This document shows, one piece after another, positions 1,469-52,212 of a stretch of DNA of 64,000 nt. The notes under the pieces were generated by a model that saw nothing but the letters and a program-made list of their open reading frames with translations, searched no databases and was not told the DNA's origin. Origin of the DNA: Nitrosopumilaceae archaeon (GTDB lineage: Archaea; Thermoproteota; Nitrososphaeria; Nitrososphaerales; Nitrosopumilaceae); NCBI GenBank assembly GCA_965208905.1, contig OZ242365.1, forward strand, positions 2,048,001 through 2,112,000, written 5' to 3'. Each line of letters begins with the position of its first letter. The first letter of the stretch is position 1. Made by a program: the position numbers and the translations under genes.

Positions 1469-3107
1469 GGGAATTATATACAAAAGTACAGCAGTCTTAA
1501 CCGCCTACTTTTCGTTGGCTTTCACCATTCAGGGTGCGTGTGTTTGGCATGCGCTTTGGAAGCGCGGTCTTGACTACCTGCCAGTCTCCTACAACCGGTG
1601 GTGGCGTGCGGTTGCGTAGGCTTATTCGGTCCCTCAAGTCCGTCCCGGACTTGATGCATAAACGACTTGCCTTTTGGGCGCGTCTTGAGTTTGGTTTTAT
1701 GTAATCATAATTGTTGTTATAGTTGTTGTCTGGACTGTACATGATGTTGAATGCGCCGTTATAGTCGGCATGACATACAGTGCCGCAGTTCCGACACTTG
1801 AACTTTCTATCATGGTTCCACCTCTCATGTACAATTTCATTATTGTGCCAAATCTTGAATCCACCGTAGCGTTCGGTGTCCTTACTACAACATGCGCCAC
1901 ACCGTTTGGACGTATTGTAGGGTTTAACCTCTCTGATTTCCGTATTATGCTCAGGGGCTTTCTTTGTACACCAATCACGGACTTCACCGGCCTTACTCTC
2001 TTTTAGTGTGCGGTTCTTGCCTTTGGCGCAGTTGCCCCCCTTGCGGGTAAGATTCACCAAGTTGAGGTTCTCAAATTTTACCAAATCGCAGTCCACGCAC
2101 AGTTCCTTGCAAAAGTGTCTGTACTTATTCAACTGCCAGTTGTATAGCGTTTTGCGCTGCCGTTTCATGCTGTCATTTATCTTATTCCATCTGTTGCTGT
2201 TATGTGTACATCTGTCACGTTCGGACTGGAGTTTTCTAATGTGCTTGCCTATTTCATCATTGTACAATTTAAGAAGGCGTGTAGTACCGTCCGACAGTGC
2301 CACATATGCTGTCAACTTGCCTATGTCAACACCCGCCGTCAACCCTGTTATCTTCCTGTCCGGGATGTACTTTTGTATTGTAAGGTGTAACTCAAACTGG
2401 CGGTGACCGCGCCGTCTATCCGCATCACTCGTTATGTCAACAATCTTGTGTGACACTACGGTTTTGATGTTGGGTAGCCGCCCCTTCGTGATGCTGAACT
2501 GTGTGTCTGACTTGGGAAATGTGACCGTGTTGTGTTTGATTCGCTTTGGTGCACCAAGGAAGAATATCGGATATGTTTTACCGTCTTTGAGATGCGTACA
2601 GTCCTTCATTTCAATACCTGCCAGGATTGCACCGCGAATTAAGTGTAGTGGTGCGCATTCCTTGGGGTCGGTATTATCCCATTCTGCCATCATGCTTTTG
2701 GCAACCGTAACGCATGTCAATGCGCTTCGGGGATACGGACTAGGACTACTGCTGGCAGTGAACTGCACGTTCAAGTTACGACACATAACACCTAGTTCAA
2801 CCCACATACGGCTTTCGGCCTCCAGACTTTCAACATATGAGGTGATTATACTATTTGTCTTTAGGCGGTATTTGCGGGTTCTATAGATTATACTCTTCTT
2901 GGTCTGCATATCACATATTATGATATTTCAGATATAAAGTTACATACCTCATATTTACTATATGATATGTATAGTACAGTCCCGACCACATGCCAGTCTG
3001 TCAAATTACGGCGCTGTTATACGGCATGCCAAACACACGCACCCTGAATGGCGAAAACCAACGAAAAATAGGCGGTTAAGCCTACTGTACTTTTGTAAGT
3101 AATTCCC
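1469..3107 (-). mobile_element. TIR-bounded non-autonomous element 1 carrying tnpB (84-bp imperfect TIRs)
   Basis: 1469-1552 and the reverse complement of 3024-3107 match at 77/84 nt, both starting GGGAATTA; no TSD seen. Confidence 0.85.
1497..2909 (-). CDS. tnpB: TnpB-family RNA-guided endonuclease, 470 aa
   Basis: RuvC-I GVDIG, RuvC-II FENL, zinc finger CGAC...CRNC, RuvC-III HADYNGA; about 80-aa C-terminal tail. Confidence 0.9.
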   Translation of the reverse strand: MQTKKSIIYRTRKYRLKTNSIITSYVESLEAESRMWVELGVMCRNLNVQFTASSSPSPYPRSALTCVTVAKSMMAEWDNTDPKECAPLHLIRGAILAGIEMKDCTHLKDGKTYPIFFLGAPKRIKHNTVTFPKSDTQFSITKGRLPNIKTVVSHKIVDITSDADRRRGHRQFELHLTIQKYIPDRKITGLTAGVDIGKLTAYVALSDGTTRLLKLYNDEIGKHIRKLQSERDRCTHNSNRWNKINDSMKRQRKTLYNWQLNKYRHFCKELCVDCDLVKFENLNLVNLTRKGGNCAKGKNRTLKESKAGEVRDWCTKKAPEHNTEIREVKPYNTSKRCGACCSKDTERYGGFKIWHNNEIVHERWNHDRKFKCRNCGTVCHADYNGAFNIMYSPDNNYNNNYDYIKPNSRRAQKASRLCIKSGTDLRDRISLRNRTPPPVVGDWQVVKTALPKRMPNTRTLNGESQRKVGG

Positions 3108-4018: not shown

Positions 4019-4876
4019 TTATTCACACTTTTTACCTCCTGCATATATGCTATCCCTTGAGTTCTGCCAATATTGTTCGGCGAACTCAGAAGGTGCCAAG
4101 TACTGTATAGAAGAGTGAATTCTGTTATGATTGTAATCTTCAAATGCAGCGAGTATTGTCTCTTTGGCTTCCTGAATGTTCGCAAACTCACGGGGCCAGA
4201 CGTACTCCTTTTTGAGTGTCTTGTGGAAGGATTCGATATGTCCGTTTTGTTCGGGAGTGTTGATGTAGATGTATTCAAGAGTAATTCCCAACGCTGCCAT
4301 TGATGATCTAAATTCCCGACTAGTGTATTGAGTTCCATTATCGACTCTCAAAGTCAATCCCGGTAATGTTGGATTGGAGTCGGCTACGGCATTATTTACG
4401 GCCATGATAGCCTCGTGTCGTGTGGCACGACTCTCCAATACAAATGCCAACCATTGCCTGGTAAAGACGTCGATTACATTAAAACAGTAACCCCATCCGT
4501 CTCTACCGCACCAGATGTATGACATGTCCGATTCCCAGAACTGATTTGGAGCCTTTGGTTTTGGAATCTTTTTATTGGTACGTATTATCTCACGCTTGGT
4601 ACGTGATGGTTTACTCCATCCCAGTGCTTTGAATATACGTTTTATTGCCTTGCGGTTGATGGGACGATTCAACTCTCGTGAGGCTTGGGCAGCCATACGT
4701 CTTGTCCCATATGTCGGTCTTTTAGGTGCAATCTTTTGTACAATCTCTAGTACTTCGGGGTCCGATGACACGTTTCTGGGTGTAGGAGCATAATACCATG
4801 CAGTTTTGGAGACTCCGCAAAGAGCGAGTGACCTATTGAGGCCCAACACGTCATGTATGATACGTGCGGCGTTCAT
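4019..4876 (-). CDS. IS3 OrfB (DDE integrase core)
   Basis: YGTRRM, WESDMSY, RVDNGTQY, NGHIESFHKTLKKE; slippery TTTAAAAAAAG near 4897-4907 for -1 frameshifting. Confidence 0.92.
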   Translation of the reverse strand: MNAARIIHDVLGLNRSLALCGVSKTAWYYAPTPRNVSSDPEVLEIVQKIAPKRPTYGTRRMAAQASRELNRPINRKAIKRIFKALGWSKPSRTKREIIRTNKKIPKPKAPNQFWESDMSYIWCGRDGWGYCFNVIDVFTRQWLAFVLESRATRHEAIMAVNNAVADSNPTLPGLTLRVDNGTQYTSREFRSSMAALGITLEYIYINTPEQNGHIESFHKTLKKEYVWPREFANIQEAKETILAAFEDYNHNRIHSSIQYLAPSEFAEQYWQNSRDSIYAGGKKCE

Positions 4877-5187
4877 TCTACCTCGCCCTCCAGCGCTTTT
4901 TTTAAAGCATCATTAGCCACGGCATACTCTCCGATGATTCTCTTAAGTGATGTAATCTCCTTTTTGTGCTTCTTGGCCTGTTTGGAAGCGTTAGAACCCT
5001 CAAACGAGCTGCGTCCGCCATCTGGAAACTTTTCTTTCCAATCGTATACGGTTCGTGGGGCCAAGTTGTGTTCGCGGCATATCTCGGCCATACTGGTCCT
5101 GGGATTGAATGTCTGGAGTACTATGTGGATCTTTTCATCTGTACTCAACTTTGATTTTTTATTTGTCATATGGTGTGTGCCCCCCAA
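4873..5187 (-). CDS. IS3 OrfA (HTH)
   Basis: KIHIVL...AEICREHNLAPRTVYDWK HTH followed by a coiled coil. Confidence 0.9.
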   Translation of the reverse strand: MGGTHHMTNKKSKLSTDEKIHIVLQTFNPRTSMAEICREHNLAPRTVYDWKEKFPDGGRSSFEGSNASKQAKKHKKEITSLKRIIGEYAVANDALKKALEGEVE

Positions 5188-5330
5188 TTGCTAAAGTGTG
5201 CATCGACGATCGGTCTTATTCTAGCGGGGTCCGCGCCAGTAGTCGTGCATCAGTAGAGTTACATGCATTTATCGTTTTTACCGTATGGTGCAGCGATACC
5301 TTATAACGGGGGATGTTTTTGGTTTAAAAC

Positions 5331-8109: not shown

Positions 8110-9264
8110 TTACTCGTAATAGTCTGGACCTATGAGAAACGTTACCAAAACCGTCGCAGATAAATCCTCATCAGGCGTAAATATTGGAGTGGCAATTGAG
8201 GCAAATGCATCAAAGAGGTTGGCAGATATGCGTTCTAGTGGGGCTCCAGAACTGGGATCGACCGTAACATCTTCAACTCCAATTATAGTATGCTGCAATG
8301 GTTTCAACGCAAGATATGCTTGATGTTTGGCGTTTAATACCGCAGTCTCTATTAAACTTTCTTGAATCCTAATTTTGGTATCATCAGACACTGTAAATTG
8401 AACAGACTCTACATTGTTAACACCTGCCTGCACAGCCGTATCCAATATGGCAGCAGTCATATTAATTTGGTCGGTATTTACCATTATGATGTTACGTACA
8501 TTATATCCGGCAAAGGTTTGCCTGTGTTGGCCATCAACATCATAGTGGGTGTCATACTCTGGATGGATGGTGATACGTGATGTGGCAATGTCATCAATTG
8601 GTATACCCAAAGATACAACAGAGTTTACTGCCATGTCTAGCAATTCGGAATTCTCGGCTAAAGCTGCACTGGCAGTAGGCCTGACAGTCTCAACTCCCAT
8701 GGTTATTACGACCCTTTCAGGTTCTACACTGGCTGTTGCCGTGCCAGCCACTGTTATTGTACCGGGCGTAGCATGACCTCCCATGAACGGCATGTCGAAC
8801 ATCATCATATCATAACCGCTCATGAACGGCATGTCGAACATCATCATGTGATCTTTCATGAATGACATCATACCATAGCAGTCTTTGTGCTCGTAGTCTC
8901 CATGCTCGTAGTCTCCATGCTCGTAGTCTCCATGCTCGTAGTCTCCATGCTCGTAGTCTCCATGCTCGTAGTCTCCATCGTCGGTGCGGTTGTAGTTATC
9001 ATACGAATAGTCGGACATTCTGTTCTTGTCTTTATACCCGTACTCTCCAAAGTTATGGTGATATTCAAAACAGTCCTTGAACATCTTGTGCATATTATCA
9101 AATTCGTAATCTTCTGACTCTTCATAAGAGTCATGTTTTTTTGTTTCAGAGTAGTTGTAAGAGTCAACATATCCGGGAAATGCCATTGCAGAGCCAGTGG
9201 CTGCACCAAGTAATACGGCAAGTCCAGTTGTCAATAGAAACGTGGTCAAAAGCAAATTATTCAT
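8110..9264 (-). CDS. Secreted SIMPL (DUF541) domain protein with His/Met-rich repeat N-terminus
   Basis: Signal peptide MNNLLLTT...; (GDYEH)x6; C-terminal SIMPL pattern ITVAGTATASVEPE...AILDTAVQAGVN...AVLNAKHQA. Confidence 0.82.
   Translation of the reverse strand: MNNLLLTTFLLTTGLAVLLGAATGSAMAFPGYVDSYNYSETKKHDSYEESEDYEFDNMHKMFKDCFEYHHNFGEYGYKDKNRMSDYSYDNYNRTDDGDYEHGDYEHGDYEHGDYEHGDYEHGDYEHKDCYGMMSFMKDHMMMFDMPFMSGYDMMMFDMPFMGGHATPGTITVAGTATASVEPERVVITMGVETVRPTASAALAENSELLDMAVNSVVSLGIPIDDIATSRITIHPEYDTHYDVDGQHRQTFAGYNVRNIIMVNTDQINMTAAILDTAVQAGVNNVESVQFTVSDDTKIRIQESLIETAVLNAKHQAYLALKPLQHTIIGVEDVTVDPSSGAPLERISANLFDAFASIATPIFTPDEDLSATVLVTFLIGPDYYE
8782..8847 (+). repeat. 27-bp direct repeat x2 (39-bp period) encoding MMMFDMPFM
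   Basis: CATGAACGGCATGTCGAACATCATCAT at 8782 and 8821. Confidence 0.9.
8888..8977 (+). repeat. 15-bp tandem repeat x6 (TGCTCGTAGTCTCCA), coding GDYEH
   Basis: Six perfect copies read directly. Confidence 0.97.
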
Positions 9265-14128: not shown

Positions 14129-14428
14129 CTAATTGTCAGTGTGGCGCTCACGTAGAGCATCATACATCTCCAAAAATTGATCCGGATCCGTCTGCCTATA
14201 CATCTTTTCAAGCGTGCGTACCTTCTGCTCTGATATCTTTTCGCCGCGAATAATCTCATGAAACTCACGTATTATCTGTGCAGGCGTCTTGTTGATATCA
14301 TAGCTGCTCAGTATACGATTTACCGAACTTTTGCACATGGCATCATATATGACATAGCGATACAGCAGATATCCGCCCAGACCAGCAGCGGCTGCCAAAA
14401 TTATTGGTATGATGAATGCGGTCGCCAT
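14129..14428 (-). CDS. Small membrane-anchored hypothetical protein
   Basis: N-terminal TM helix, 99-aa clean ORF. Confidence 0.7.
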   Translation of the reverse strand: MATAFIIPIILAAAAGLGGYLLYRYVIYDAMCKSSVNRILSSYDINKTPAQIIREFHEIIRGEKISEQKVRTLEKMYRQTDPDQFLEMYDALRERHTDN

Positions 14429-14477
14429 TATACACTTGAAAACACTCTCGATATTTCATTGTTGTCTATAATTTGTC

Positions 14478-15897
14478 GGGAATTATATACCTGGGTAGAC
14501 AAGGCTAGTTCTGGAGGGTACATGTTTATAAAGTATTATGATGTATAAAACTACATGTATCGATCTTATGGCTTCCGCGTAAACCTGACGCGCTCTCAGG
14601 CGCGTCACATATCCAAAATACGGGACTCACAGCGGTTCGTGTACAACTGGGCCGTGGAGCGGCTGCTTACTAACCCCACACTCACTACATATGACCTCTC
14701 CAGAGAGTTCACCAAGGTGAGGCGTTCCGTATCGTGGCTGCAAACAGTGGAGCGCATATACCAAAATACGGCCATCCATCAGGCCCGCACTGCTGCGGAT
14801 GTCTCGAACAAATACGGCAACGGCGAGCTGAGTTTCCGCGCCAGAAAGCGCGATAATAAAAAGGCAGTATCATGTGATGTACAGCCGCGATTTGTGGACA
14901 ACAGGCACGCGTCATTGCCGGGCCTTGGTGTTGTTGAGTTGCCTGAGGAGCAGCCATATCAATTTCCACACAACTGGCTGTATGGCTCAAGGTCTTTCCA
15001 TTTGGTGCAGGTTACACCAAAGTCGTGGGGGCACGTCAAGTCATGTGACCATATCTATCGGCTGCACATAACATATGACGTACCAGTACCCGAACGGCGC
15101 GCCAAGACCGGTGTTGTTGCCGGCATAGACAGGGGGATAACAAATCCAACGGTTGTCTGTAAGACAGACCACAACACTTCGTGTATAATATCGTATGACA
15201 CGGCAACCGCATTCCGCACGAACCGTACATGGAATGATGGTGTGCGCCGTACCATATCACACCACAACAAGCATTCTCATACAACACACAAGATGAAACG
15301 CAAACGAGAAAAGTACAATCGTGGTAATGCGAATGACCGCGAGTATGCGGAGTGGCTTCTAGCCAAGAAGATATGCGAGGGCGTGGATGTAATATATGTC
15401 GAACAGCTCAACCTTGAGGCCATGAGCAGGCGCGGTGGTAGGCACAAGAAAGGTCTGAACAGGGGAATGAGGTTTATTCGGCATTATGCAATATTGCGAA
15501 AGATCCGCACCATCGCAGAGCGGCTGGGCATCCGTGTAGTAGAGGTAAGTCCAAAGCACACAAGCCAGGAGTGCAGTGTGTGCGGCTACACAAACAAGGA
15601 GAACCGAGACGGGGAGACATTCAAGTGTCTCAAATGTGACCACGTGGCAAACGCCGACGGCAATGCGTCGGTGAATATGATTCAACGGGGGACCGGTATG
15701 AAGGTTCCCGCGGGGGAAGGAATGGCCCTCGAAAGGCGTGAAATGGGCCGGACCCGGAAGCCACCTGTTTGTGCAGTTCCGGACGCCAGACGGCGGCGTG
15801 AGAATCAAGCGTGCAATCGACCCAAAACATCAAGCGTCATGAAGCACCTGGGAATGTACGCGTATGTTACGCGTGCATACCCAGGTATATAATTCCC
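14478..15897 (+). mobile_element. TIR-bounded non-autonomous element 2 carrying tnpB; perfect 20-bp TIR, 8-bp TSD
   Basis: GGGAATTATATACCTGGGTA (14478-14497) and its exact reverse complement (15878-15897); AATTTGTC at 14470-14477 and 15898-15905. Confidence 0.95.
14555..15892 (+). CDS. tnpB: TnpB-family RNA-guided endonuclease, 445 aa
   Basis: RFVYNWA, GIDRG, YVEQL, TSQECSVCG...FKCLKC, NADGNAS; TTTATAAA box at 14525; stop codon lies inside the right TIR. Confidence 0.93.
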   Translation: MYRSYGFRVNLTRSQARHISKIRDSQRFVYNWAVERLLTNPTLTTYDLSREFTKVRRSVSWLQTVERIYQNTAIHQARTAADVSNKYGNGELSFRARKRDNKKAVSCDVQPRFVDNRHASLPGLGVVELPEEQPYQFPHNWLYGSRSFHLVQVTPKSWGHVKSCDHIYRLHITYDVPVPERRAKTGVVAGIDRGITNPTVVCKTDHNTSCIISYDTATAFRTNRTWNDGVRRTISHHNKHSHTTHKMKRKREKYNRGNANDREYAEWLLAKKICEGVDVIYVEQLNLEAMSRRGGRHKKGLNRGMRFIRHYAILRKIRTIAERLGIRVVEVSPKHTSQECSVCGYTNKENRDGETFKCLKCDHVANADGNASVNMIQRGTGMKVPAGEGMALERREMGRTRKPPVCAVPDARRRRENQACNRPKTSSVMKHLGMYAYVTRAYPGI

Positions 15898-16116
15898 AAT
15901 TTGTCTGACTTGACTCTGTCCTACACGCACAAGTCATGGGAAAACGTATTGTACCACCCTAAAAATGAGTTTGTAATGTGTCTTGGTTAATACATTTGAT
16001 AATTTGGCGCTCAAAGCATATGAGCAGCAGAGCGTACAAGATTGTGGCCTGCAGGTATTGGGATTATAGCATTGCAGATACACATGGAAAAACCAAACCT
16101 CTGTATCAATATATAA

Positions 16117-21491: not shown

Positions 21492-22716
21492 AACTCTGTG
21501 TCATAATTCTATTCGCATGTAAATCGGACTCTGCTCATGTAGAGTTACACGTTACACTTCGACTCCCGGGCTAACGATTCATCCCGCCATCTGTTGTATA
21601 GAGATACCTTGAGCTGTATCTCATGTACGATATTCTCCCATTTGAGGGCGAGAACATGTTCACCAAACACGCGTTTAAATATAGAAAATACACCCTCCAC
21701 AACCCATCTCCTGCGGTATCCAATCTTGGCCTTCCAGTACACCTGATTCTCCCTCTTCTCTTCTTGGCTTAACAGATCTAGCCGTGTAGCCTTGGTACTG
21801 CCTCCCAGTTGGTCCCTTACAGATATGCCCCATGCAGCGCCAGACCCCCTACTGCGCGGCGTAACATTGATCTTGTGCAGTATGCCTGGAACTACCCCTG
21901 CACGCGCACATGCAGCAATGTTGGCCCTTGAGCCGTACGCGGCATCTCCATATATGATAGTGGGCATCTCTGAACCATCATCTGAACAGTCCGATGTGGT
22001 ATCTGCAAGAGGTGGCATGCCCGATACGAGTAGATTTTTGTATCTGGGCATATCAGATGAGATTTCTTGCTCTCCAGACTGGTACGACATCTCAGATGCG
22101 CAGTCTGCATCAACACTCTGTCCTAACAGTGATTGGAATTTAGTAATATCGCCTACTGACTCGTCTGTAATGGATATGGCGGTTATCTTCATGGTCTGCG
22201 TGTCAACCATCGCGTGCATCTTTACAAAACCACGTTTTACCTTCCACTTTTTGCTCATCCACTCTCCCCTATTGTGTTGCTTGAGCCCTGTTGCATCGAC
22301 TGCCAGTATACGAGAATGTTTTTTGTTTGACACTGTTATCATTTCATTCTGATTTATATTCACATCAAGCATGCCTATCCGCTTGCGTATATGGCTAAAG
22401 GAAGGTGTGTTGGATTCTCCAATCATCTTTCCGATTATGCCCTCAAGTTGCCTGTACCGGACTCCAATCCCGACCCTGAGGGCAGCGGTTAGCATAATCA
22501 ATGTCTCCGAATATTGGTACGGAGCACCCACCTTTCCCTTGTTGGCATGGTTGACCTCACGCTTCCACTCGGGGTTATACTCTATGAACATGTCTGCCCC
22601 ACGCTTGACGTACTTTTCGTTGTCAGTTTTTACCATAAAATAGATGGCTTAATGATGGGAGCTATATGTGTTTTGATCAATGTGGCGGTATTCAAGAATA
22701 GTTATGACACAAAGTT
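21492..22716 (-). mobile_element. IS5-family (IS903-like) element with TIRs and 8-10 bp TSD
   Basis: TIRs AACTCTGTGTCATAA and AACTTTGTGTCATAA; flanking direct repeat (T)TATTCATT(A). Confidence 0.88.
21545..22636 (-). CDS. IS5-family DDE transposase
   Basis: LAVDATGLK..NRGEW, VKMHAMVD, YGDAAY, GYRRRWVVEGVFSIFKR. Confidence 0.92.
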   Translation of the reverse strand: MVKTDNEKYVKRGADMFIEYNPEWKREVNHANKGKVGAPYQYSETLIMLTAALRVGIGVRYRQLEGIIGKMIGESNTPSFSHIRKRIGMLDVNINQNEMITVSNKKHSRILAVDATGLKQHNRGEWMSKKWKVKRGFVKMHAMVDTQTMKITAISITDESVGDITKFQSLLGQSVDADCASEMSYQSGEQEISSDMPRYKNLLVSGMPPLADTTSDCSDDGSEMPTIIYGDAAYGSRANIAACARAGVVPGILHKINVTPRSRGSGAAWGISVRDQLGGSTKATRLDLLSQEEKRENQVYWKAKIGYRRRWVVEGVFSIFKRVFGEHVLALKWENIVHEIQLKVSLYNRWRDESLARESKCNV

Positions 22717-41300: not shown

Positions 41301-41843
41301 CTATTGTTTGAGGGAATTATATACAAAAGTACACAGCCTCGGCTGTACACTCATGCCTTTTCTGACGACTTCGTTGTATGGAGTGGAGCATAGAAGGTGT
41401 TGGCTTGTAGTCCTCCTTGTGCCCCGGCCGTCTTTGCGGCGGTATGGCGCATGGTTAGAGTTGTCATCCATGACCCTTCTACATGCGACGGAGGCATCCT
41501 GTATGGCGCCCCTGCCAAACACCATAGGTAAGTCAGATACCCAATCCGACTCGGCGCGCCATACAGTCAACTTTTTGTACATGCCGTACTTTAATGCCCT
41601 CTTTGATGGCCCAAAATCATATGTATGGTAGTCATCATCCAGCATACCTGATGTAAAACTCAGCTTGCCCGGCAGTTTGAAGGGCTGCAGGATGTCCACT
41701 ACCACCCTCTCCATATATTCTCCACCAAACAAATACTCTGATACGGCGCGGTTATACACATATCTTGACGCATGATTCGTGCGGTGCGCCCACTCCACGA
41801 ACCGCACATCCCTCCGTAGCGGTACCTTGACTATCCGTATCAT
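41301..41843 (-). pseudogene. TnpB N-terminal fragment, RuvC domain lost
   Basis: MIRIVKVPL...SRYVYNRAV...LTVWRAESDW...AIQDA...PYRRK; no RuvC motifs. Confidence 0.72.
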
Positions 41844-41952
41844 GATATGTAATACGGTATGCTGGTATTTAAGGGGAGTTGCTGTGGACGCGATCCGTGG
41901 TTCAGGCATTAACTCTCAGAATCGGGGTTGTGTACTTTTGTATATAATTCTC
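41312..41952 (-). mobile_element. TIR-bounded element 4 carrying an internally deleted tnpB
   Basis: TIRs GGGAATTATATACAAAAGTACACA and GAGAATTATATACAAAAGTACACA; flanks TTGTTTGA / TTGTGTAA (6/8, possibly a decayed TSD). Confidence 0.85.
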
Positions 41953-42019: not shown

Positions 42020-43063
42020 TGTATTATGTCGAAATTATTTCGCCTAGTCATCGGTGTCCCTCTCCATCCATTCTAAGTCACTCTTCCTGACATCATCTGG
42101 TACTTTTTTGTTGTGAAATGCCTGTAGCGGGGTCTCGCCATTGTTTATGTCTAAAGACCAGTGCAGTCGCACCTCGTTGTAGTACGCGACAAACTCCGCT
42201 AGGCTGCCAAAATGACATAGTTCTTCTTCCAAGGTGCGGTGGAACCGTTCAAGCTTGCCGTTTGTTTGTGGGTGGTAGGGGCGGGTGTTGATCAACTCAA
42301 TACCCCGGTCAAGCAGCTCTGCCTCAAATATAGTGGGGGTCCATGATTTTGCAGGAATCTTTCTTCTCACACCCACAAAGCACGATCCGTTGTCGGAGAG
42401 TATGGTGGCCGGGGTTCCAAACTCAACAATGCTATTTTGCAGGACTGTTACCGCGTTCTCGGATGTGGCCCCCTTGAATATCATGGCTCCAACCACACAT
42501 CTTGACGCATCATCAAGATATGTGATTAATTGGTAGCCTTGAAAACGTGGATCTTTCATCGCATGCCAGTCCGTATGCCACATCGCATTGGAGTATCTGC
42601 GCTCATAGCGTATCCATTTACGCCTGCGCGATTTTGCTGCAGATAGAGTGACCATATTGTTTTCTTTCATGATTGTGTATACCGTTTTTTCACTTATTTG
42701 TATGCCCTTGTGATTTAAGTACTTGGTGATCCTTGTGACGCCTGCTGGCATTATACGATGTGCTGCTAGTACGACGTTGGTTTGCTCCTCGGTGGGAGGA
42801 ATCTTGGGTCTGCCTGGCATTTGTAGTGTGGGAATCTTGCCCGTTGCACGATACATTGCCCAGAGTTGTTGTACGCGTCTCTGGCTAATCTTCATCTCTG
42901 TAGCAATGTGTGATGTACTACTACCTTTCCTGCATTGTCGAATGATATAATCTATCTGCTTCTGTGTCAGATTGACTCTCATGGGTTTGCGTGATCTATA
43001 TAGACTAAAATATTCTTTGGTTGGCAGTCTAAAGTTAGGGCGAACTAATTTCCGCACAATAGA
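42020..43063 (-). mobile_element. IS481-family element with 16-bp direct repeat
   Basis: 25-bp TIRs (20/25 match); TGTTGCAACTCTTCCC at 42004-42019 and 43064-43079. Confidence 0.92.
42044..42982 (-). CDS. IS481-family transposase
   Basis: HTH, WHTDWH, YLDDASR, LSDNGS, PQTNGKLERFH. Confidence 0.92.
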   Translation of the reverse strand: MRVNLTQKQIDYIIRQCRKGSSTSHIATEMKISQRRVQQLWAMYRATGKIPTLQMPGRPKIPPTEEQTNVVLAAHRIMPAGVTRITKYLNHKGIQISEKTVYTIMKENNMVTLSAAKSRRRKWIRYERRYSNAMWHTDWHAMKDPRFQGYQLITYLDDASRCVVGAMIFKGATSENAVTVLQNSIVEFGTPATILSDNGSCFVGVRRKIPAKSWTPTIFEAELLDRGIELINTRPYHPQTNGKLERFHRTLEEELCHFGSLAEFVAYYNEVRLHWSLDINNGETPLQAFHNKKVPDDVRKSDLEWMERDTDD

Positions 43064-43307
43064 TGTTGCAACTCTTCCCACAAGTTTGGATGATTAACAA
43101 GTAATATTAATGATCTTGAACATTAACGACAATTATAGTGGGTGTAAGGTATAACAAGTCACGAAAACCAAGGACAAGTAAGAGTGTACGTACATCAAAA
43201 CCACAAACAGATACCGTATACTGTTGTTTTCACTCCACGCACCTAATGTATGATGCCCACACTCCATCCTGTAAGTATCGTTAATGGAACATCGCATATG
43301 GTGCAAC

Positions 43308-44321
43308 TCAACAAAAGTTTTGTGTTGCATACATCTTTCCATCTTCACTAAACGCCACACCAACACCCGTCCTATCATAAGCGGGCTCTAGTATGTTTGC
43401 GCGATGACCAGGACTGCTCATCCAGCTGGTAACCACGTCCCAGGCTATGTCCCGAGTAGTCTCATTATGTTCAATACCACTAACCCAAGATATATTCTCA
43501 GCAAGCCCGTAGGTGTAGTAGGAACCATGGTCTCTGGTGCAGTCATAGCCGGCACGCATCACCCGGTCTGTTGGGTCAAGGCCTTCGGGGGTGACATGTC
43601 TGAAATATTCCCGGTCAGCCATATCTTGACTATGCTCTTTAGCAATCTCTTCCACCAAAGCAATGCGCTGAAGTTTATCTACTCCCATCGACTCGCGCTC
43701 TGTATTTGTGAACAGGTATATGTATAATTCAATATCCTTAACAAACTCTTCTTCATCTGGCGATATCATTGGGCCGACTATGTAATCATCTATCGATGAT
43801 ATATCGAATTCGATATCGTCTGAATCGTTCTGCATCAACTCTTCATCTGTGTTCGCTCTGTCCGGTGTTGGGGGGCTCTCATCTATAGGACGTATGTATG
43901 GTCCAAATGCATCTGGTAGTAGGGTATAGACTGCGTCGGTGACAGTTCCAGGAACCTCTATTACATCCGCAAACGTCTCAACCACAGTATCAGTTACAGC
44001 CCCCGGAACTTCGACCACATCCGCAAACGTCTCAACTACAGTATCAGTTACAGCCCCCGGAACTTCGACCACATCCGCAAACGTCTCAACTACAGTATCA
44101 GTTACAGATCCGGCCATCTCTTCTGTATCTGATACAACATCTGTTATTGTCCCAGTTATGGCATCTGTGGCGTCCTCTGTAACATTGGTGGCCACACTGG
44201 ATGCGGTTCTGACGCCTGAAATTATCTCGGGTACTGCATATGTAAAAAATGACCACAACCCAACACCTATAACGCCTACAATTACGGCTAAAATTATTGG
44301 CTTCTTGGGCATATAATACAT
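43308..44321 (-). CDS. Membrane-anchored CAP/SCP domain protein with repeat stalk
   Basis: TNTER, HSQDMADREYFRH, AENI, WMSSPGHRANIL, GVGV...ATQNFC. Confidence 0.9.
   Translation of the reverse strand: MYYMPKKPIILAVIVGVIGVGLWSFFTYAVPEIISGVRTASSVATNVTEDATDAITGTITDVVSDTEEMAGSVTDTVVETFADVVEVPGAVTDTVVETFADVVEVPGAVTDTVVETFADVIEVPGTVTDAVYTLLPDAFGPYIRPIDESPPTPDRANTDEELMQNDSDDIEFDISSIDDYIVGPMISPDEEEFVKDIELYIYLFTNTERESMGVDKLQRIALVEEIAKEHSQDMADREYFRHVTPEGLDPTDRVMRAGYDCTRDHGSYYTYGLAENISWVSGIEHNETTRDIAWDVVTSWMSSPGHRANILEPAYDRTGVGVAFSEDGKMYATQNFC
43939..44107 (+). repeat. 54-bp tandem repeat, about 3 copies (PGAVTDTVVETFADVVEV)
   Basis: ACATCCGCAAACGTCTCAAC at 43963, 44017 and 44071. Confidence 0.93.
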
Positions 44322-46868: not shown

Positions 46869-47826
46869 GGGAAATTGGAACTGTTAAGTTATAGGTACCT
46901 TAGACCTAGACCTAAACCAGCCTGCCGTACGGCAGATGTTGGCGAATTGCCATTCAGAGGAGTTCCTGAAAGATGTACTTTGTTGGTTGGGCAAAGCAGC
47001 CCTACCTTTGGACAACCTGTACCGGCCATCACGTCGTTAACACTTGGGGGAGGTATGCAAGTGCCAAGATGTATCCTTCCTCTCAAGACCATTCCGGCCT
47101 TGTTGTACAGCGCGTAAACGGCTTGCGCGCGTTTAGACCACCGTACAGTACGAAATGTGAAAAGTATGTTGAACGCGGCATTGACATCCGCATGCATCAG
47201 AACACCGCACTCATGACACCTGAACTGACTGCTTTTGCGCCATGTGTTTGTGCTGCCGTATACACAGCACCGCTGTGATGTATATTTCTGGTCTATTTCC
47301 ATGTACTCTGTATTGTGTTGCAAAGCCTGTTGCGCCAGCAAGGCCCGCGCCTCACCACACTTGCTTTGTCGCATCTTCCTATTCTTGGCTTTCTGACCGG
47401 GGCCCTTAGTCGTCATTGTACGGAGGTTCATTCCCTCCATGATGATTTTGTCGCACTGCACGAACAGCTTTTTGGCAAACTTGCGCAGTTTGTCTTTCTG
47501 CCTATTTCCCACCTTTTTGTATATACTTTGCAGTTGCGCATGCAATGTACACCACTTGTGGGAGTGGAGTTTGCAGTGAGACATCTTCTTTTGAATCCGC
47601 GCGATGTTCCGTATGGTGTCCTGCTCGCGCAGTGTAAGCATATCAATTGTACCGTCCGATTTTCCAACAACAAGCGTTGCTTGCCGCCCATGTCAATTCC
47701 CGCATGTATGCCGGTTGCTACACGGTCCGGGACATCCTCGCGTATTGTGACGTGTAGTTCAAACTGCCTCTCTTTATCTGTGTTGTTTGACAGGTTCTGG
47801 GAAATCAACGGGACATGACATGTAGT
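46869..47826 (-). pseudogene. Frameshifted, 5'-truncated tnpB (element 3) keeping one GGGAAATT end
   Basis: RQFELHVTI..GIDMG (47428-47808 frame), then IMEGM..TSQRC..HADVNAA (46889-47641 frame); homologous to element 1 TnpB; GGGAAATTGG at 46869. Confidence 0.85.
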
Positions 47827-47855: not shown

Positions 47856-49109
47856 TTAAGATGTTGATTCTGCGGCTGCTCGAATGAGGGTTAGGTACTT
47901 GTTATTACCCTCGATAGTGATACCTGCGGCCTCGGCAGGCGTAATTTTGTCTGGGAGTCCTTCATGTGGTTTGACAAAGTTATGATAGAGTCGTAATCCA
48001 GTAATGATGCCAGAGTCCTCACGCTTAAGCCCTCTGGTTACTTTCTCTCTATGGCGTAGGGTTGCTCCGTTGAAGGATTCCATTTGGTTGTTATGATGTA
48101 TGCCGTCAAACGCCACATCATGAATGTGTTCTGTATCTTTGTGCAGGAAGTTCTTTGCCTTGTATTGTTGTTTCCATGCATTGTGGAAGTTTGCCGCCTT
48201 GTCACTGATTAATGTGGTTGGGACTTTACCGGCCACACGTTTAGCCTCTTTAAACATTGGAGCCACATCATCATTGCCTTTGTGGGTGGCTACCATTTTG
48301 GCTATCCAAAAGCGGGTCTCACTGTCCAGCATGGCAAATAGATATTTGCGGTTACCTTTGATTTTTAGATATAGTTCGTCAGTGCGCCAAGCCTCTCCGA
48401 CCTGTGGCTTAATGGTGTCAGCGAACCGTTCCATTATCTCAGCATATTCTTTACCCCAATTCTGGACGGTCTTGTAGGTGATCTTGAACCCTGTCATCTC
48501 AAGGCTCTTGGCAACCTTCCTGCTAGACAAACCACTAAACAGTAAATCTACGGCCTGCGTAATCTGTTCGGGGGTTGCGTGCTTTCTCTCAAAGCCTAGG
48601 TTGTGCGTGAACCTCTTGTTGCAGTCCTTACATTTGTAGCCTTGGACCGGTCCTCGTTTAAGTCTGCGTATGCCTTGTTTGACAACATTAGAGGATTTAC
48701 ATCGTTTGCACTTGGTGAGATCCACTTGTTTGATAATGGTCTTGGGCACTTCTTCTTGTACTGCCTCACGCATTCTCTTGGATATTTCGATTGCGTGTGC
48801 GTGTTTGCAACATACACCACGGTACATTGAATCGGGACAGGAACAAACCCATCCCGATTCTGTCTGTATCACCTCATAGACCTTATTGGAAGACTGAGAT
48901 CTTACAGTATAGGTTGTATCATCAACTCTTGTTATCTGATTTGATTTACTCGCTATTTGCGCACCCCGTGTGATTCTAGCCTTTTGGCCGGGGCTATGAT
49001 TCTTATGTGATGGTATAACAATAGGCTCAGAGTGCAAGTTGCTCTTCATTGGGATGGTCACGATCCCTCTGACTTTCTTTTCATCATCGCCATACTTTGT
49101 TGTTATCAT
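47856..49109 (-). CDS. IS6-family (IS240-like) DDE transposase with SWIM and zinc-ribbon N-terminus
   Basis: CSCPD...CKH SWIM; CKRC...CKDC; WRTDELY, LISDKA, NNQMESFN; putative element end GGGAAATTAGGG at 47827. Confidence 0.88.
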   Translation of the reverse strand: MITTKYGDDEKKVRGIVTIPMKSNLHSEPIVIPSHKNHSPGQKARITRGAQIASKSNQITRVDDTTYTVRSQSSNKVYEVIQTESGWVCSCPDSMYRGVCCKHAHAIEISKRMREAVQEEVPKTIIKQVDLTKCKRCKSSNVVKQGIRRLKRGPVQGYKCKDCNKRFTHNLGFERKHATPEQITQAVDLLFSGLSSRKVAKSLEMTGFKITYKTVQNWGKEYAEIMERFADTIKPQVGEAWRTDELYLKIKGNRKYLFAMLDSETRFWIAKMVATHKGNDDVAPMFKEAKRVAGKVPTTLISDKAANFHNAWKQQYKAKNFLHKDTEHIHDVAFDGIHHNNQMESFNGATLRHREKVTRGLKREDSGIITGLRLYHNFVKPHEGLPDKITPAEAAGITIEGNNKYLTLIRAAAESTS

Positions 49110-50925: not shown

Positions 50926-51780
50926 TCATTTATTTGTCATCTCCAACTGTTCGGCAAATTCTACTGGTGTCATGTATCCGATAGAGGAATGAATCCTCTC
51001 GGTGTTGTAATCTACAAAGGCCTTTGCAATGATCGTCTCTGCCTCCTGATAGTTCGCAAACTCGTGCGGCCAGATGTATTCCTTTTTCAGCGTCTTGTGA
51101 AATGATTCGACATGTCCGTTCTGCTCCGGCGTATTCTTGTAGATGAATTCATGTTTGCCGATGCCAAGGGCCTGAACCGCATGTCTAAAGTCGCGGCTCG
51201 TATACTGGTTGCCGTTGTCCGTACGCAATCGTAATTGTGAGCAGTCAGGTTTCTCTGCGGCAACCGCGTTGGTGATTGAGGTGATTGCAATGTCTCGTGT
51301 GGCATTGACATCAAACGCGTAGGCGATCCACTTGCGCGTAAAGCAGTCAATTACGTTGAAGCAGTAGCACCAGCCGTCTATACCGCACCAGATGTATGTG
51401 ATGTCCGTCTCCCACAACTGGTGTGGGGCTTTGGGTTTGAAGAGCTTTTGACCCGCTCGAATGATGTCGTTTTTGGTATTTTGTGGCTGGATGTAGCCCA
51501 TTTTGCGATATATCCGCTGTATCTGCTTGCGGTTCACCACAATTCCCGTATCGCGCGTTATCTGGGCCGCCATGCGCCGTGTGCCGTACGTGGGCCTCTT
51601 TCTGCTCGTATCTAGCACAGTGCTCAATATATCCGGATTCAATCCCATGTCTCTGGGCTTGGGTTTGTAGTACCATTGGCGCCTGGATACGCCCGCATAC
51701 CCTAGCGACTTGCGCAGGCTCAAATGTTGTTCCTGCATGATTTTTACCGCGTTCAATCGTTGCTTGCCTCCAAGGTTTTT
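50926..51780 (-). CDS. IS3 OrfB (expressed by -1 frameshift)
   Basis: YGTRRM, WETDITY, RTDNGNQY, NGHVESFHKTLKKE; slippery TTTAAAAAAAA near 51776-51786. Confidence 0.88.
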   Translation of the reverse strand, partial: KNLGGKQRLNAVKIMQEQHLSLRKSLGYAGVSRRQWYYKPKPRDMGLNPDILSTVLDTSRKRPTYGTRRMAAQITRDTGIVVNRKQIQRIYRKMGYIQPQNTKNDIIRAGQKLFKPKAPHQLWETDITYIWCGIDGWCYCFNVIDCFTRKWIAYAFDVNATRDIAITSITNAVAAEKPDCSQLRLRTDNGNQYTSRDFRHAVQALGIGKHEFIYKNTPEQNGHVESFHKTLKKEYIWPHEFANYQEAETIIAKAFVDYNTERIHSSIGYMTPVEFAEQLEMTNK

Positions 51781-52043
51781 TTTAAAGCGTCGTTTGCGAT
51801 TGTCAGATCCCCTATGATTCGCTTTAGGTCGCCGTTCTCCTTTTTGATGGCCTTTATCGGATCCTTCTTTCCGTGATGGGTCAGTCCGGACTTGCCTGCG
51901 TCCATGAACTTTTGCCGCCAGGCTTGAAACGTTTGGGGATGAACGTTGTGCTTGCGGCACAGCTCGGCCGTGCCAATATTGGTCTTGATTGATTCCAAAA
52001 CGATCTGGATCTTTTGGTCTGGAGTAAACTTTGTTCTTACCAT
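51753..52043 (-). CDS. IS3 OrfA
   Basis: FTPDQKIQIVLE...AELCRKHNVHPQTFQAWR. Confidence 0.9.
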   Translation of the reverse strand: MVRTKFTPDQKIQIVLESIKTNIGTAELCRKHNVHPQTFQAWRQKFMDAGKSGLTHHGKKDPIKAIKKENGDLKRIIGDLTIANDALKKTLEASND

Positions 52044-52212
52044 GGCATCATCCCTCCCATTACGACTTTAAGCTGTATGAACGTGAGTGTTCTCATTCTA
52101 GCGGGGTCCCCACCACTCACATGGGAACCGTAAATTGTTACCATGTGGTGATGGTTCTCACCGGGCCCATTACTTTTTGGTAACTTTAATCGGATTCTAC
52201 CGTACAACAACC

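Follow-up and report, generated by a model that had tools for sequence, protein, structure and literature searches.

RNA-guided TnpB nucleases are known from IS200/IS605 elements, which, IS1341 included, are defined by having neither terminal inverted repeats (TIRs) nor target-site duplications (TSDs), by hairpins at both ends, and by the Y1 transposase TnpA (PMC13565253). For IS605 elements, a homing role of TnpB has been demonstrated (PMC10055086, PMC8612924), and in the accepted model, transposase and nuclease read the same short motif beside the insertion site. Six DDE-associated TnpB branches with inverted repeats, DDE-1 to DDE-6, have already been published, with IS630 as the only family named in the text of that paper and IS1595 appearing only in its supplementary profile list (PMC10691335); a review lists ISL2, IS630, and IS1031 as TnpB partners (PMC13565253). 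Here, we describe a 64,000-nt stretch of a Nitrosopumilaceae archaeon genome (GCA_965208905.1, contig OZ242365.1, positions 2,048,001 to 2,112,000; hereafter the window, to whose first base all coordinates refer), and in particular its element 2 (E2), in which tnpB lies between TIRs. From sequence comparisons, we are highly confident of its anatomy, namely IS1595-type ends, a TSD, insertion anchored at a promoter, a constrained RNA with a pseudoknot, and a nuclease under selection. A literature search covering titles and abstract openings, with few subscription journals, returned no paper on an association of TnpB with IS1595 and none on insertions that keep a fixed distance to archaeal TATA promoters on their upstream side.

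An IS1595-type element carrying tnpB

E2 (14478-15897, plus strand; 1,420 bp) appears to be a non-autonomous IS1595-type element, consisting of a left TIR, tnpB, a predicted omegaRNA, and a right TIR. Its TIRs (14478-14497 and 15878-15897, plus strand) are 20 bp long and perfect, as is the 8-bp TSD (14470-14477, plus strand, identical to 15898-15905), which is the sole perfect TSD among three tnpB elements of the window, the others being element 1 (E1; 1469-3107, minus strand) and element 4 (E4; 41312-41952, minus strand). The tnpB gene (14555-15892, plus strand; 445 aa) has its stop codon within the right TIR, and a TATA-like box 30 nt ahead of its start (14525-14532, plus strand) is, judging from its sequence and from the spacing in host genes, its probable promoter. 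A general scan of the window for TIRs with TSDs recovered E2 and no additional element with these ends.

Scanning GTDB genomes with a 68-sequence alignment of the E2 family yielded 44 loci, which come without exception from five genomes of Nitrosopumilaceae or Thaumarchaeota; DNA related to E1 and E4 was represented by one locus (L022). When E2 and a second element in L022 are added, both ends could be defined for 41 elements, the remaining five being cut off or truncated. The two TSD copies agree at 8 of 8 positions in 31 of these elements, at 7 of 8 in another 8, and at fewer in 2, counts that lean upward, since left ends were chosen by TIR and TSD jointly and the TSD served to place two of them manually. 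Among TSD lengths from 5 to 11, 8 fits best. The TIRs of the relatives measure 9 to 39 bp, and the TSD sequence is random (at most 0.22 bit per position).

The ends of E2 are the same as those of IS1595 transposase elements in these relatives. The transposase open reading frame (ORF) of L014 scores 123 bits against PF12762 (cutoff 27) and 170 bits against NF033547 (cutoff 75), and encodes an IS1595-family DDE transposase with a zinc ribbon. Furthermore, composites of IS1595 and tnpB with one TSD around the whole were found in L014, L035, and L016, and these three suggest, indirectly, that an IS1595 transposase may move the ends. What characterizes the IS1595 family was thus found: a transposase with zinc-ribbon and DDE_Tnp_IS1595 domains that shares these ends (in relatives), TIRs, and an 8-bp TSD, matching at 7 or more of 8 positions in 39 of 41 elements. 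A Cenarchaeum genome encodes an IS1595 transposase with 53% identity, and two of four bacterial IS1595 relatives that were fetched gave similar ends and an 8-bp TSD (L047 and L048), too few for a test of promoter targeting. Passenger-carrying IS1595 members have ISNwi1-like ends.

Several of the loci are rearranged. Other insertions interrupt the tnpB elements of L009, L024, and L039 (1 to 1.6 kb) and of L038 (within the RNA region), with both TIRs and the TSD kept. In L026 (9900-14400), another TIR lies some 3 kb past the element, and after it comes the element's left flank in inverted copy; together with a mismatched TSD, this looks like a local inversion. A further repeated end type with the same initial terminal bases, to which neither tnpB nor IS1595 could be assigned, is found in L016 (2764), L023 (12468), and L028 (19691).

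E2 TnpB scores above the cutoff of profile NF040570, and its RuvC triad (D192/E283/D368) and C4 zinc finger are intact; among the 68 aligned homologues, the D-E-D triad is intact in 67, and the zinc finger is likewise kept. With a ratio of nonsynonymous to synonymous substitutions (dN/dS) of 0.24-0.27 in the tnpB body, the protein is under purifying selection, which keeps it intact. The best fold match of its structure model is 8h1j (ISDra2 TnpB), with a predicted local distance difference test (pLDDT) score below 50 for residues 399-445, which coincide with the RNA region. In a rough alignment to an ISDra2-like chain, whose numbering was assumed to equal that of ISDra2, the positions of the motif-reading residues Y52 and F77 are variable and that of K76 is mostly Arg (54/68), which is weak evidence either way. 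Close homologues with names (94% identity) come from Cenarchaeum, which lives in sponges. A FastTree tree of 112 proteins places the TnpB types of the three window elements in one 39-row branch (support 89), which is compatible with a single capture, although the tree does not demonstrate one. A C-terminal Ile is no more than suggestive as a TIR marker in the protein, as 33 of 120 IS1595 transposases also end in Ile.

A predicted structured RNA at the tnpB 3′ end

A previous, sequence-only reading of the window had pointed to a stem-loop followed by a conserved tail at tnpB 3′ ends, and had taken them for the terminus of an omegaRNA within the TIR. The tail (13 nt, 15885-15897) is real and is kept at tnpB 3′ ends, but it is not specific to them. 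Exact matches in the window lie at 1469, 14478, 15885, and 41312, and matches with 1 or 2 mismatches at 3095 and 41940, which amounts to one per end of the three elements (6 in total, compared to a shuffle mean of 2.1, with 0 of 100 shuffles reaching 6). Since it is present at both ends of all three elements, the tail represents the outer TIR. Its last nine bases also occur at the ends of tnpB-free IS1595 copies, and, as the TIR to which the transposase would bind, the tail itself yields no evidence for an RNA.

The hairpin, in contrast, is specific to the tnpB 3′ end and not a general property of the TIR. In E2, it is present as described (15846-15886, plus strand; 18 pairs, −30.1 kcal/mol, z −7.0, 0 of 200 shuffles equally stable), with the inner half of the TIR as its 3′ arm. 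The hairpins of E1 (about 1482-1512, minus strand) and E4 (about 41328-41351, minus strand) exist as well but are weaker (z −2.3 with 6 of 200 shuffles as stable, and z −2.4 with 3 of 200, respectively), and that of E1 has a rival fold in longer context. A full-length relative of E4 in L022 has a different stem sequence with a fold at the same position, an observation from this one relative. The left ends of the three window elements fold with z-scores of −0.4 (E2), −1.0, and −1.4, and a z of −2 or lower was reached by 13 of 27 distinct right ends; among left ends the count was 1 of 30, and among IS1595-only ends 2 of 11. The hairpin was also considered as a transcription terminator, which was rejected, as it is not followed by a U-run; a terminator scan found only an unrelated minus-strand site.

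The TnpBs of the three window elements belong to different families (E1 and E2, both full, share 25% identity, and E4 is an internally deleted third type), so that their hairpins do not form a covariation set. Within the E2 family, however, the stem does covary. For 31 aligned ends (30 distinct), a structure of 58 pairs was obtained, in which 98.1% of 1,739 cells are paired and 11 of the 58 pairs show two-sided changes; 0 to 1 of 500 shuffles were as high, and slid controls were paired in 31% to 49%. The terminal stem supplies 5 of the 11 pairs, and the fold, which spans about 210 nt and is closed by the hairpin, shows many G·U-preserving changes. In E2, the predicted scaffold (15688-15897, plus strand) overlaps the 3′ end of tnpB and stops at the element end. 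It includes a 5-bp pseudoknot, in which GGAAT (15719-15723, plus strand) from the 9-nt loop of an upstream stem (15711-15731) pairs with bases −6 to −2 of the element (ATTCC, 15892-15896, within the right TIR). Across the family, 98.7% of the pseudoknot cells are paired, with U-A changed to C-G in one lineage and G·U in another.

Constraint on four-fold degenerate sites agrees with this structure. In 30 intact copies, their identity is 0.81-0.88 at 218 to 39 nt before the end, compared to 0.47-0.71 in the gene body, and between genomes it is 0.72-0.76 in the RNA overlap and 0.31-0.46 in the body. In the 44 loci, strong matches of an E2-family covariance model were E2-family ends, including extra partial copies, whereas the ends of E4 (9.4 bits, E 0.14) and E1 (7.0 bits, E 0.69) did not score significantly; an Rfam search of the window at the gathering threshold gave no match. 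A structured RNA of the canonical TnpB type, overlapping the 3′ end and pseudoknotted to the terminal bases, is therefore predicted for the E2 family, and the TIR appears to double as the 3′ end of the RNA scaffold. The proposed RNA terminus within the TIR thus stands as far as fold, pseudoknot, and synonymous-site constraint over the last ~220 nt are concerned.

In ISDra2, the corresponding pseudoknot has canonical pairs at −5 to −3 and non-canonical pairs at −6 and −2, and is followed by the guide (PMC10097598). Since the pseudoknot described here uses bases −6 to −2, i.e., the ISDra2 register, the guide most likely begins at the TSD, as had been proposed from the sequence of E2. By analogy with ISDra2 (PMC10097598, PMC8612924), the predicted guide of E2 (15898-15913, plus strand) would comprise the right TSD copy (15898-15905) and adjacent flank.

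It is also worth noting that left and right ends co-evolve at inner TIR positions 10-24 (identity of 0.73 to an element's own opposite end and 0.54 to others; 25 distinct end pairs from L001-L043, 0 of 10,000 permutations as high), which suggests that left ends are refreshed from right ends.

Insertion upstream of host promoters

Target sites were compared in a set of 37, which remained after removing two poor-TSD and two sister sites from the 41 elements; information was calculated for a 39-site set. The upstream motif that had been thought to persist at the left junction was not found: the 37 sites have 35 distinct pentamers directly 5′ of the TSD, and positions −4 to −1 hold at most 0.18 bit. 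Depletion of C at −3 and −2 is largely matched by host promoter composition and is not claimed as a motif.

An AT-rich block (at least 5 of 6 A/T) lies 12-17 nt from the TSD on the left side of 31 of the 37 sites, compared to 3 on the right, and does so in all six genomes. On the opposite strand, this block is a TATA-like box preceded by G-N-A-A, and 23 of 37 sites have a start codon at 39-44 nt, compared to 5 of 37 on the right side and 1-8 in the remaining bins on the left. In host genes, YTTWWAW starts at −33 to −28 from the ATG, which is the same TATA-to-start spacing as at the insertions. The layout fits an archaeal promoter with B recognition element (BRE) and TATA box (PMC6640164), with the left junction 4 nt from the BRE position; we call this element BRE-like because of its position and PMC6640164 and not because of the host signal, which is weak in 49 loosely anchored host promoters. 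The promoter targeted by E2 (14428-14465, minus strand) has its BRE-like position at 14465-14460, its TATA-like box at 14459-14452, and the start codon at 14428 of a 99-aa ORF that is directed away from the element.

As read from these sequences, the elements insert immediately upstream of host TATA-box promoters, at a fixed distance and, in the E2 family, in a fixed orientation. So constant a spacing speaks for targeting and not simply for the persistence of insertions in intergenic DNA. That only the upstream side is used could come from TFB, or from selection against insertion between TATA box and start.

The left junction had also been expected to pose a self-targeting problem. An 8- to 10-nt guide match is indeed present there, but it extends over at most 10 contiguous nt, and ISDra2 TnpB needs a match of about 12 bp for cutting (PMC10097598). 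Therefore, the left junction is probably not cleaved. Given the absence of an adjacent motif, the self-target at risk would be the fully matching right junction.

In the composites, the IS1595 right end replaces the left TIR of tnpB (L014, 9953-10001; L035, 9956-10001). In L014, its distance upstream of the promoter of tnpB itself is the standard one, and in L035 it is shorter by 3 nt. Passengers may be captured through promoter-anchored insertion.

A possible mechanism and its alternatives

We lean slightly toward a mechanism in which promoter-anchored IS1595 derivatives carry a TnpB that restores lost copies by means of a relaxed motif. The elements would derive from a DDE transposon of the IS1595 family, with tnpB and omegaRNA as cargo, and would be non-autonomous or, occasionally, composite; their site would be chosen by the transposase, alone or tethered by TBP/TFB. 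The RNA would be made, bound by TnpB, and extend some 16-20 nt past the element end, with the TSD and right flank as guide. Upon element loss, the site would collapse to one TSD copy, TnpB would cut this empty allele, and homologous repair would copy the element back (restorative homing). Given the near randomness of the bases 5′ of the TSD, TnpB would have to use a short or relaxed adjacent motif that rules out at least TTCCC, the end of the element itself. The left junction might be bound but not cut. Going further, the strict motif could have been given up because the IS1595 carrier docks upstream of TBP/TFB-bound promoters and not at a sequence. Such a natural, nearly motif-free TnpB, for which rejection of, or pairing with, its own TIR would be the only means of distinguishing self from an empty site, is a speculative proposal that we consider rather doubtful.

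Several points weigh against restorative homing and the RNA model behind it. Characterized TnpBs require a strict 5-nt motif (PMC10055086), a review argues in its section 6.2 that cut-and-paste DDE elements profit little from TnpB (PMC13565253), no empty allele was seen among the loci examined, and the 64-kb window contains no IS1595 transposase gene. The RNA structure was derived from the same alignment that was used for counting, with related and codon-constrained sequences, and the compensatory change in the pseudoknot is a single event in one lineage. E1 and E4 offer only 4-bp or wobble-rich candidates as pseudoknot partners, and 14 of 27 right-end hairpins fall short of z ≤ −2 when taken alone. 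Moreover, position −5 before the TSD is biased (C in 23 and A in 0 of 39 sites) beyond what host promoters show, and E1 and E4 have the 3′ end of tnpB turned toward a promoter, so that the orientation is not universal.

Of the alternatives, a regulatory role survives best, even though we judge it unlikely. TnpB with its RNA would bind the element's own junctions and control access of the transposase or the adjacent host promoter, or would cut other DNA, with homing not being its main job. This agrees with the missing adjacent motif, with the short distance between left junction and BRE position, and with the finding that scant seed pairing can suffice for TnpB binding (PMC10055086); the guides of E1 and E4 would overlie the BRE/TATA region. 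However, binding-only TnpB derivatives lose the catalytic triad (PMC10691335), which is kept in 67 of 68 homologues here.

The guide might also begin after the TSD, with the TSD absorbed into the scaffold or skipped, following the example of Fanzor1 and Fanzor2*, whose RNAs have TIR and TSD in the scaffold (PMC10711439). The random TSD of the elements described here is unable to form a fixed structure, and the pseudoknot is placed as in ISDra2, where the guide starts at +1, making this register distinctly improbable.

We see still less probability in TnpB-assisted targeting, for which the AT-rich block at −17 to −12 would be the adjacent motif and the TSD (positions 12-19 after the motif) would lie at the staggered cut. 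The cut of ISDra2 TnpB does lie 15-21 bp away from its motif and leaves 5′ overhangs (PMC8612924), and the AT-rich motif is one-sided, yet a guide made of donor TSD and right flank has no complementarity to a new site. In addition, an opposite-strand start codon lies 30 nt beyond the motif, as in host promoters, and IS1595 left ends share the spacing (one solo copy, L020, and the composites), where TnpB could act in trans.

It is very unlikely that the hairpin is a feature of the DNA alone and that no functional RNA exists, the hairpin being either a right-end palindrome of IS605 type, used by a Y1 TnpA, or a side effect of TIR duplication. Its 3′ arm is part of the TIR and the inner TIRs co-evolve, which speaks for such a reading, but constraint and covariation extend over ~210 nt with G·U-preserving changes and a long-range pseudoknot, left ends lack the hairpin, TIRs with a TSD are incompatible with IS605 chemistry (PMC13565253), and none of the 42 window ORFs scanned gave a Y1 match. 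Finally, that tnpB is a decaying passenger without current function, for which several broken or interrupted copies could be cited (E4, L024, L039, L034, and L037), is largely refuted by the low dN/dS, the intact triad and zinc finger, and the strong RNA-level constraint, and has next to no probability.

Selection thus keeps TnpB and its RNA although the sites lack the short motif of the accepted model, and dozens of natural insertions are available as a test set. This makes testable whether TSD-making DDE elements undergo restorative homing and how TnpB spares its own right junction. A relaxed-motif TnpB would, if true, be relevant to genome editing, and with a nearly motif-free one, the element would both be a promoter-targeting transposon of archaea and provide compact nucleases that are broadly targetable. 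Insertion upstream of promoters is a possible safe-harbor strategy and could explain the capture of genes with their promoters by IS1595.

Other elements in the window

E1 encodes a TnpB of a different family (ORF 1497-2909, 470 aa) and has TIRs of ~100 nt, its 5′ end (3008-3107) being a degenerate inverted copy (~100 nt, 86%) of its 3′ end (1469-1568). It has no TSD, the 8-mers flanking its two ends being different, and both ends adjoin TATA-like boxes at the standard distance. Inverted ends, facing TATA-like boxes, and unlike flanking 8-mers suggest a second, end-mediated rearrangement. E4 is an internally deleted tnpB element of 641 bp with a TSD matching at 6 of 8 positions, and its tnpB 3′ end faces a TATA-like box at the standard spacing. 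A further tnpB (46869-47800, minus strand), 5′-truncated and frameshifted, with 32% identity to E1 and with a hairpin and a TIR-like variant end, is possibly the element 3 of the sequence-only reading; it abuts an IS6-like transposase with SWIM and zinc-ribbon domains (47856-49109).

The window also contains an IS5/IS4-type element with a DDE transposase (PF01609), a 14-bp TIR, and an 8-bp TSD (21492-22716), as well as IS3/IS481-like integrase-core transposases (4019-5238, 50926-52115, and 42044-43081), two of which are related copies. Long imperfect inverted repeats (53681-53799/56441-56559, 119 nt; 52613-52667/53854-53908, 55 nt) surround small ORFs, including a helix-turn-helix fragment. 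Coding tandem repeats with 15-nt and 54-nt units lie at 8865-8999 and 43936-44107, in a SIMPL-domain and a CAP-domain protein, respectively.

Comparison with known systems

With the TnpB-omegaRNA systems of IS200/IS605 (ISDra2, ISGst2; IS1341 when solo), the elements described here share the TnpB fold with RuvC D-E-D triad and zinc finger, an RNA over the 3′ end of the ORF, a pseudoknot with the last element bases, and a guide from the flank. They differ in having TIRs and an 8-bp TSD instead of end palindromes without TSD, in a DDE instead of a Y1 transposase, and in that a conserved 5′ adjacent motif common to transposase target and nuclease was not found. With TIRs, a TSD, and left-end hairpins in only 1 of 30 cases, they do not belong to IS200/IS605. 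Neither do they belong to IS607, which has a serine recombinase and neither TIR nor TSD, and whose profile NF038280 scores far under its cutoff (54 compared to 350).

Passenger-carrying IS1595 members resemble them in the zinc-ribbon DDE transposase, the 8-bp TSD, extra genes between the TIRs, and ends like those of L047 and L048; here, however, the passenger would be an RNA-guided nuclease whose RNA uses the TIR, and insertion is promoter-anchored. The DDE-1 to DDE-6 branches likewise have tnpB inside inverted repeats, with its 3′ end near the element end and solo copies moved in trans (PMC10691335). Our elements are set apart by IS630 being the only family that the text of that paper names, but they may overlap with one of these branches.

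Promoter-anchored insertion is the only likeness to the Mutator-like elements TnGBS, ISLre2, and ISKra4 (PMC3942029), which, as described there, use another transposase family, bacterial sigmaA instead of archaeal TATA promoters, and no TnpB; with an IS1595 and not a Mutator-like transposase, membership in p-MULT3/4 (ISLre2, TnGBS, ISKra4) does not apply. Lastly, Fanzor1 and Fanzor2* of eukaryotic TIR-TSD transposons (PMC10711439, PMC10530073) are also nucleases captured by a cut-and-paste-type element, with the TIR recoded into RNA. The canonical RuvC-II E283 (in 67 of 68), archaeal hosts, and a random TSD distinguish the present elements from Fanzor, which has a rearranged RuvC-II glutamate and eukaryotic or viral hosts, and whereas Fanzor1 has lost the pseudoknot and has the TSD in its scaffold, here the predicted pseudoknot is kept and the TSD is random.

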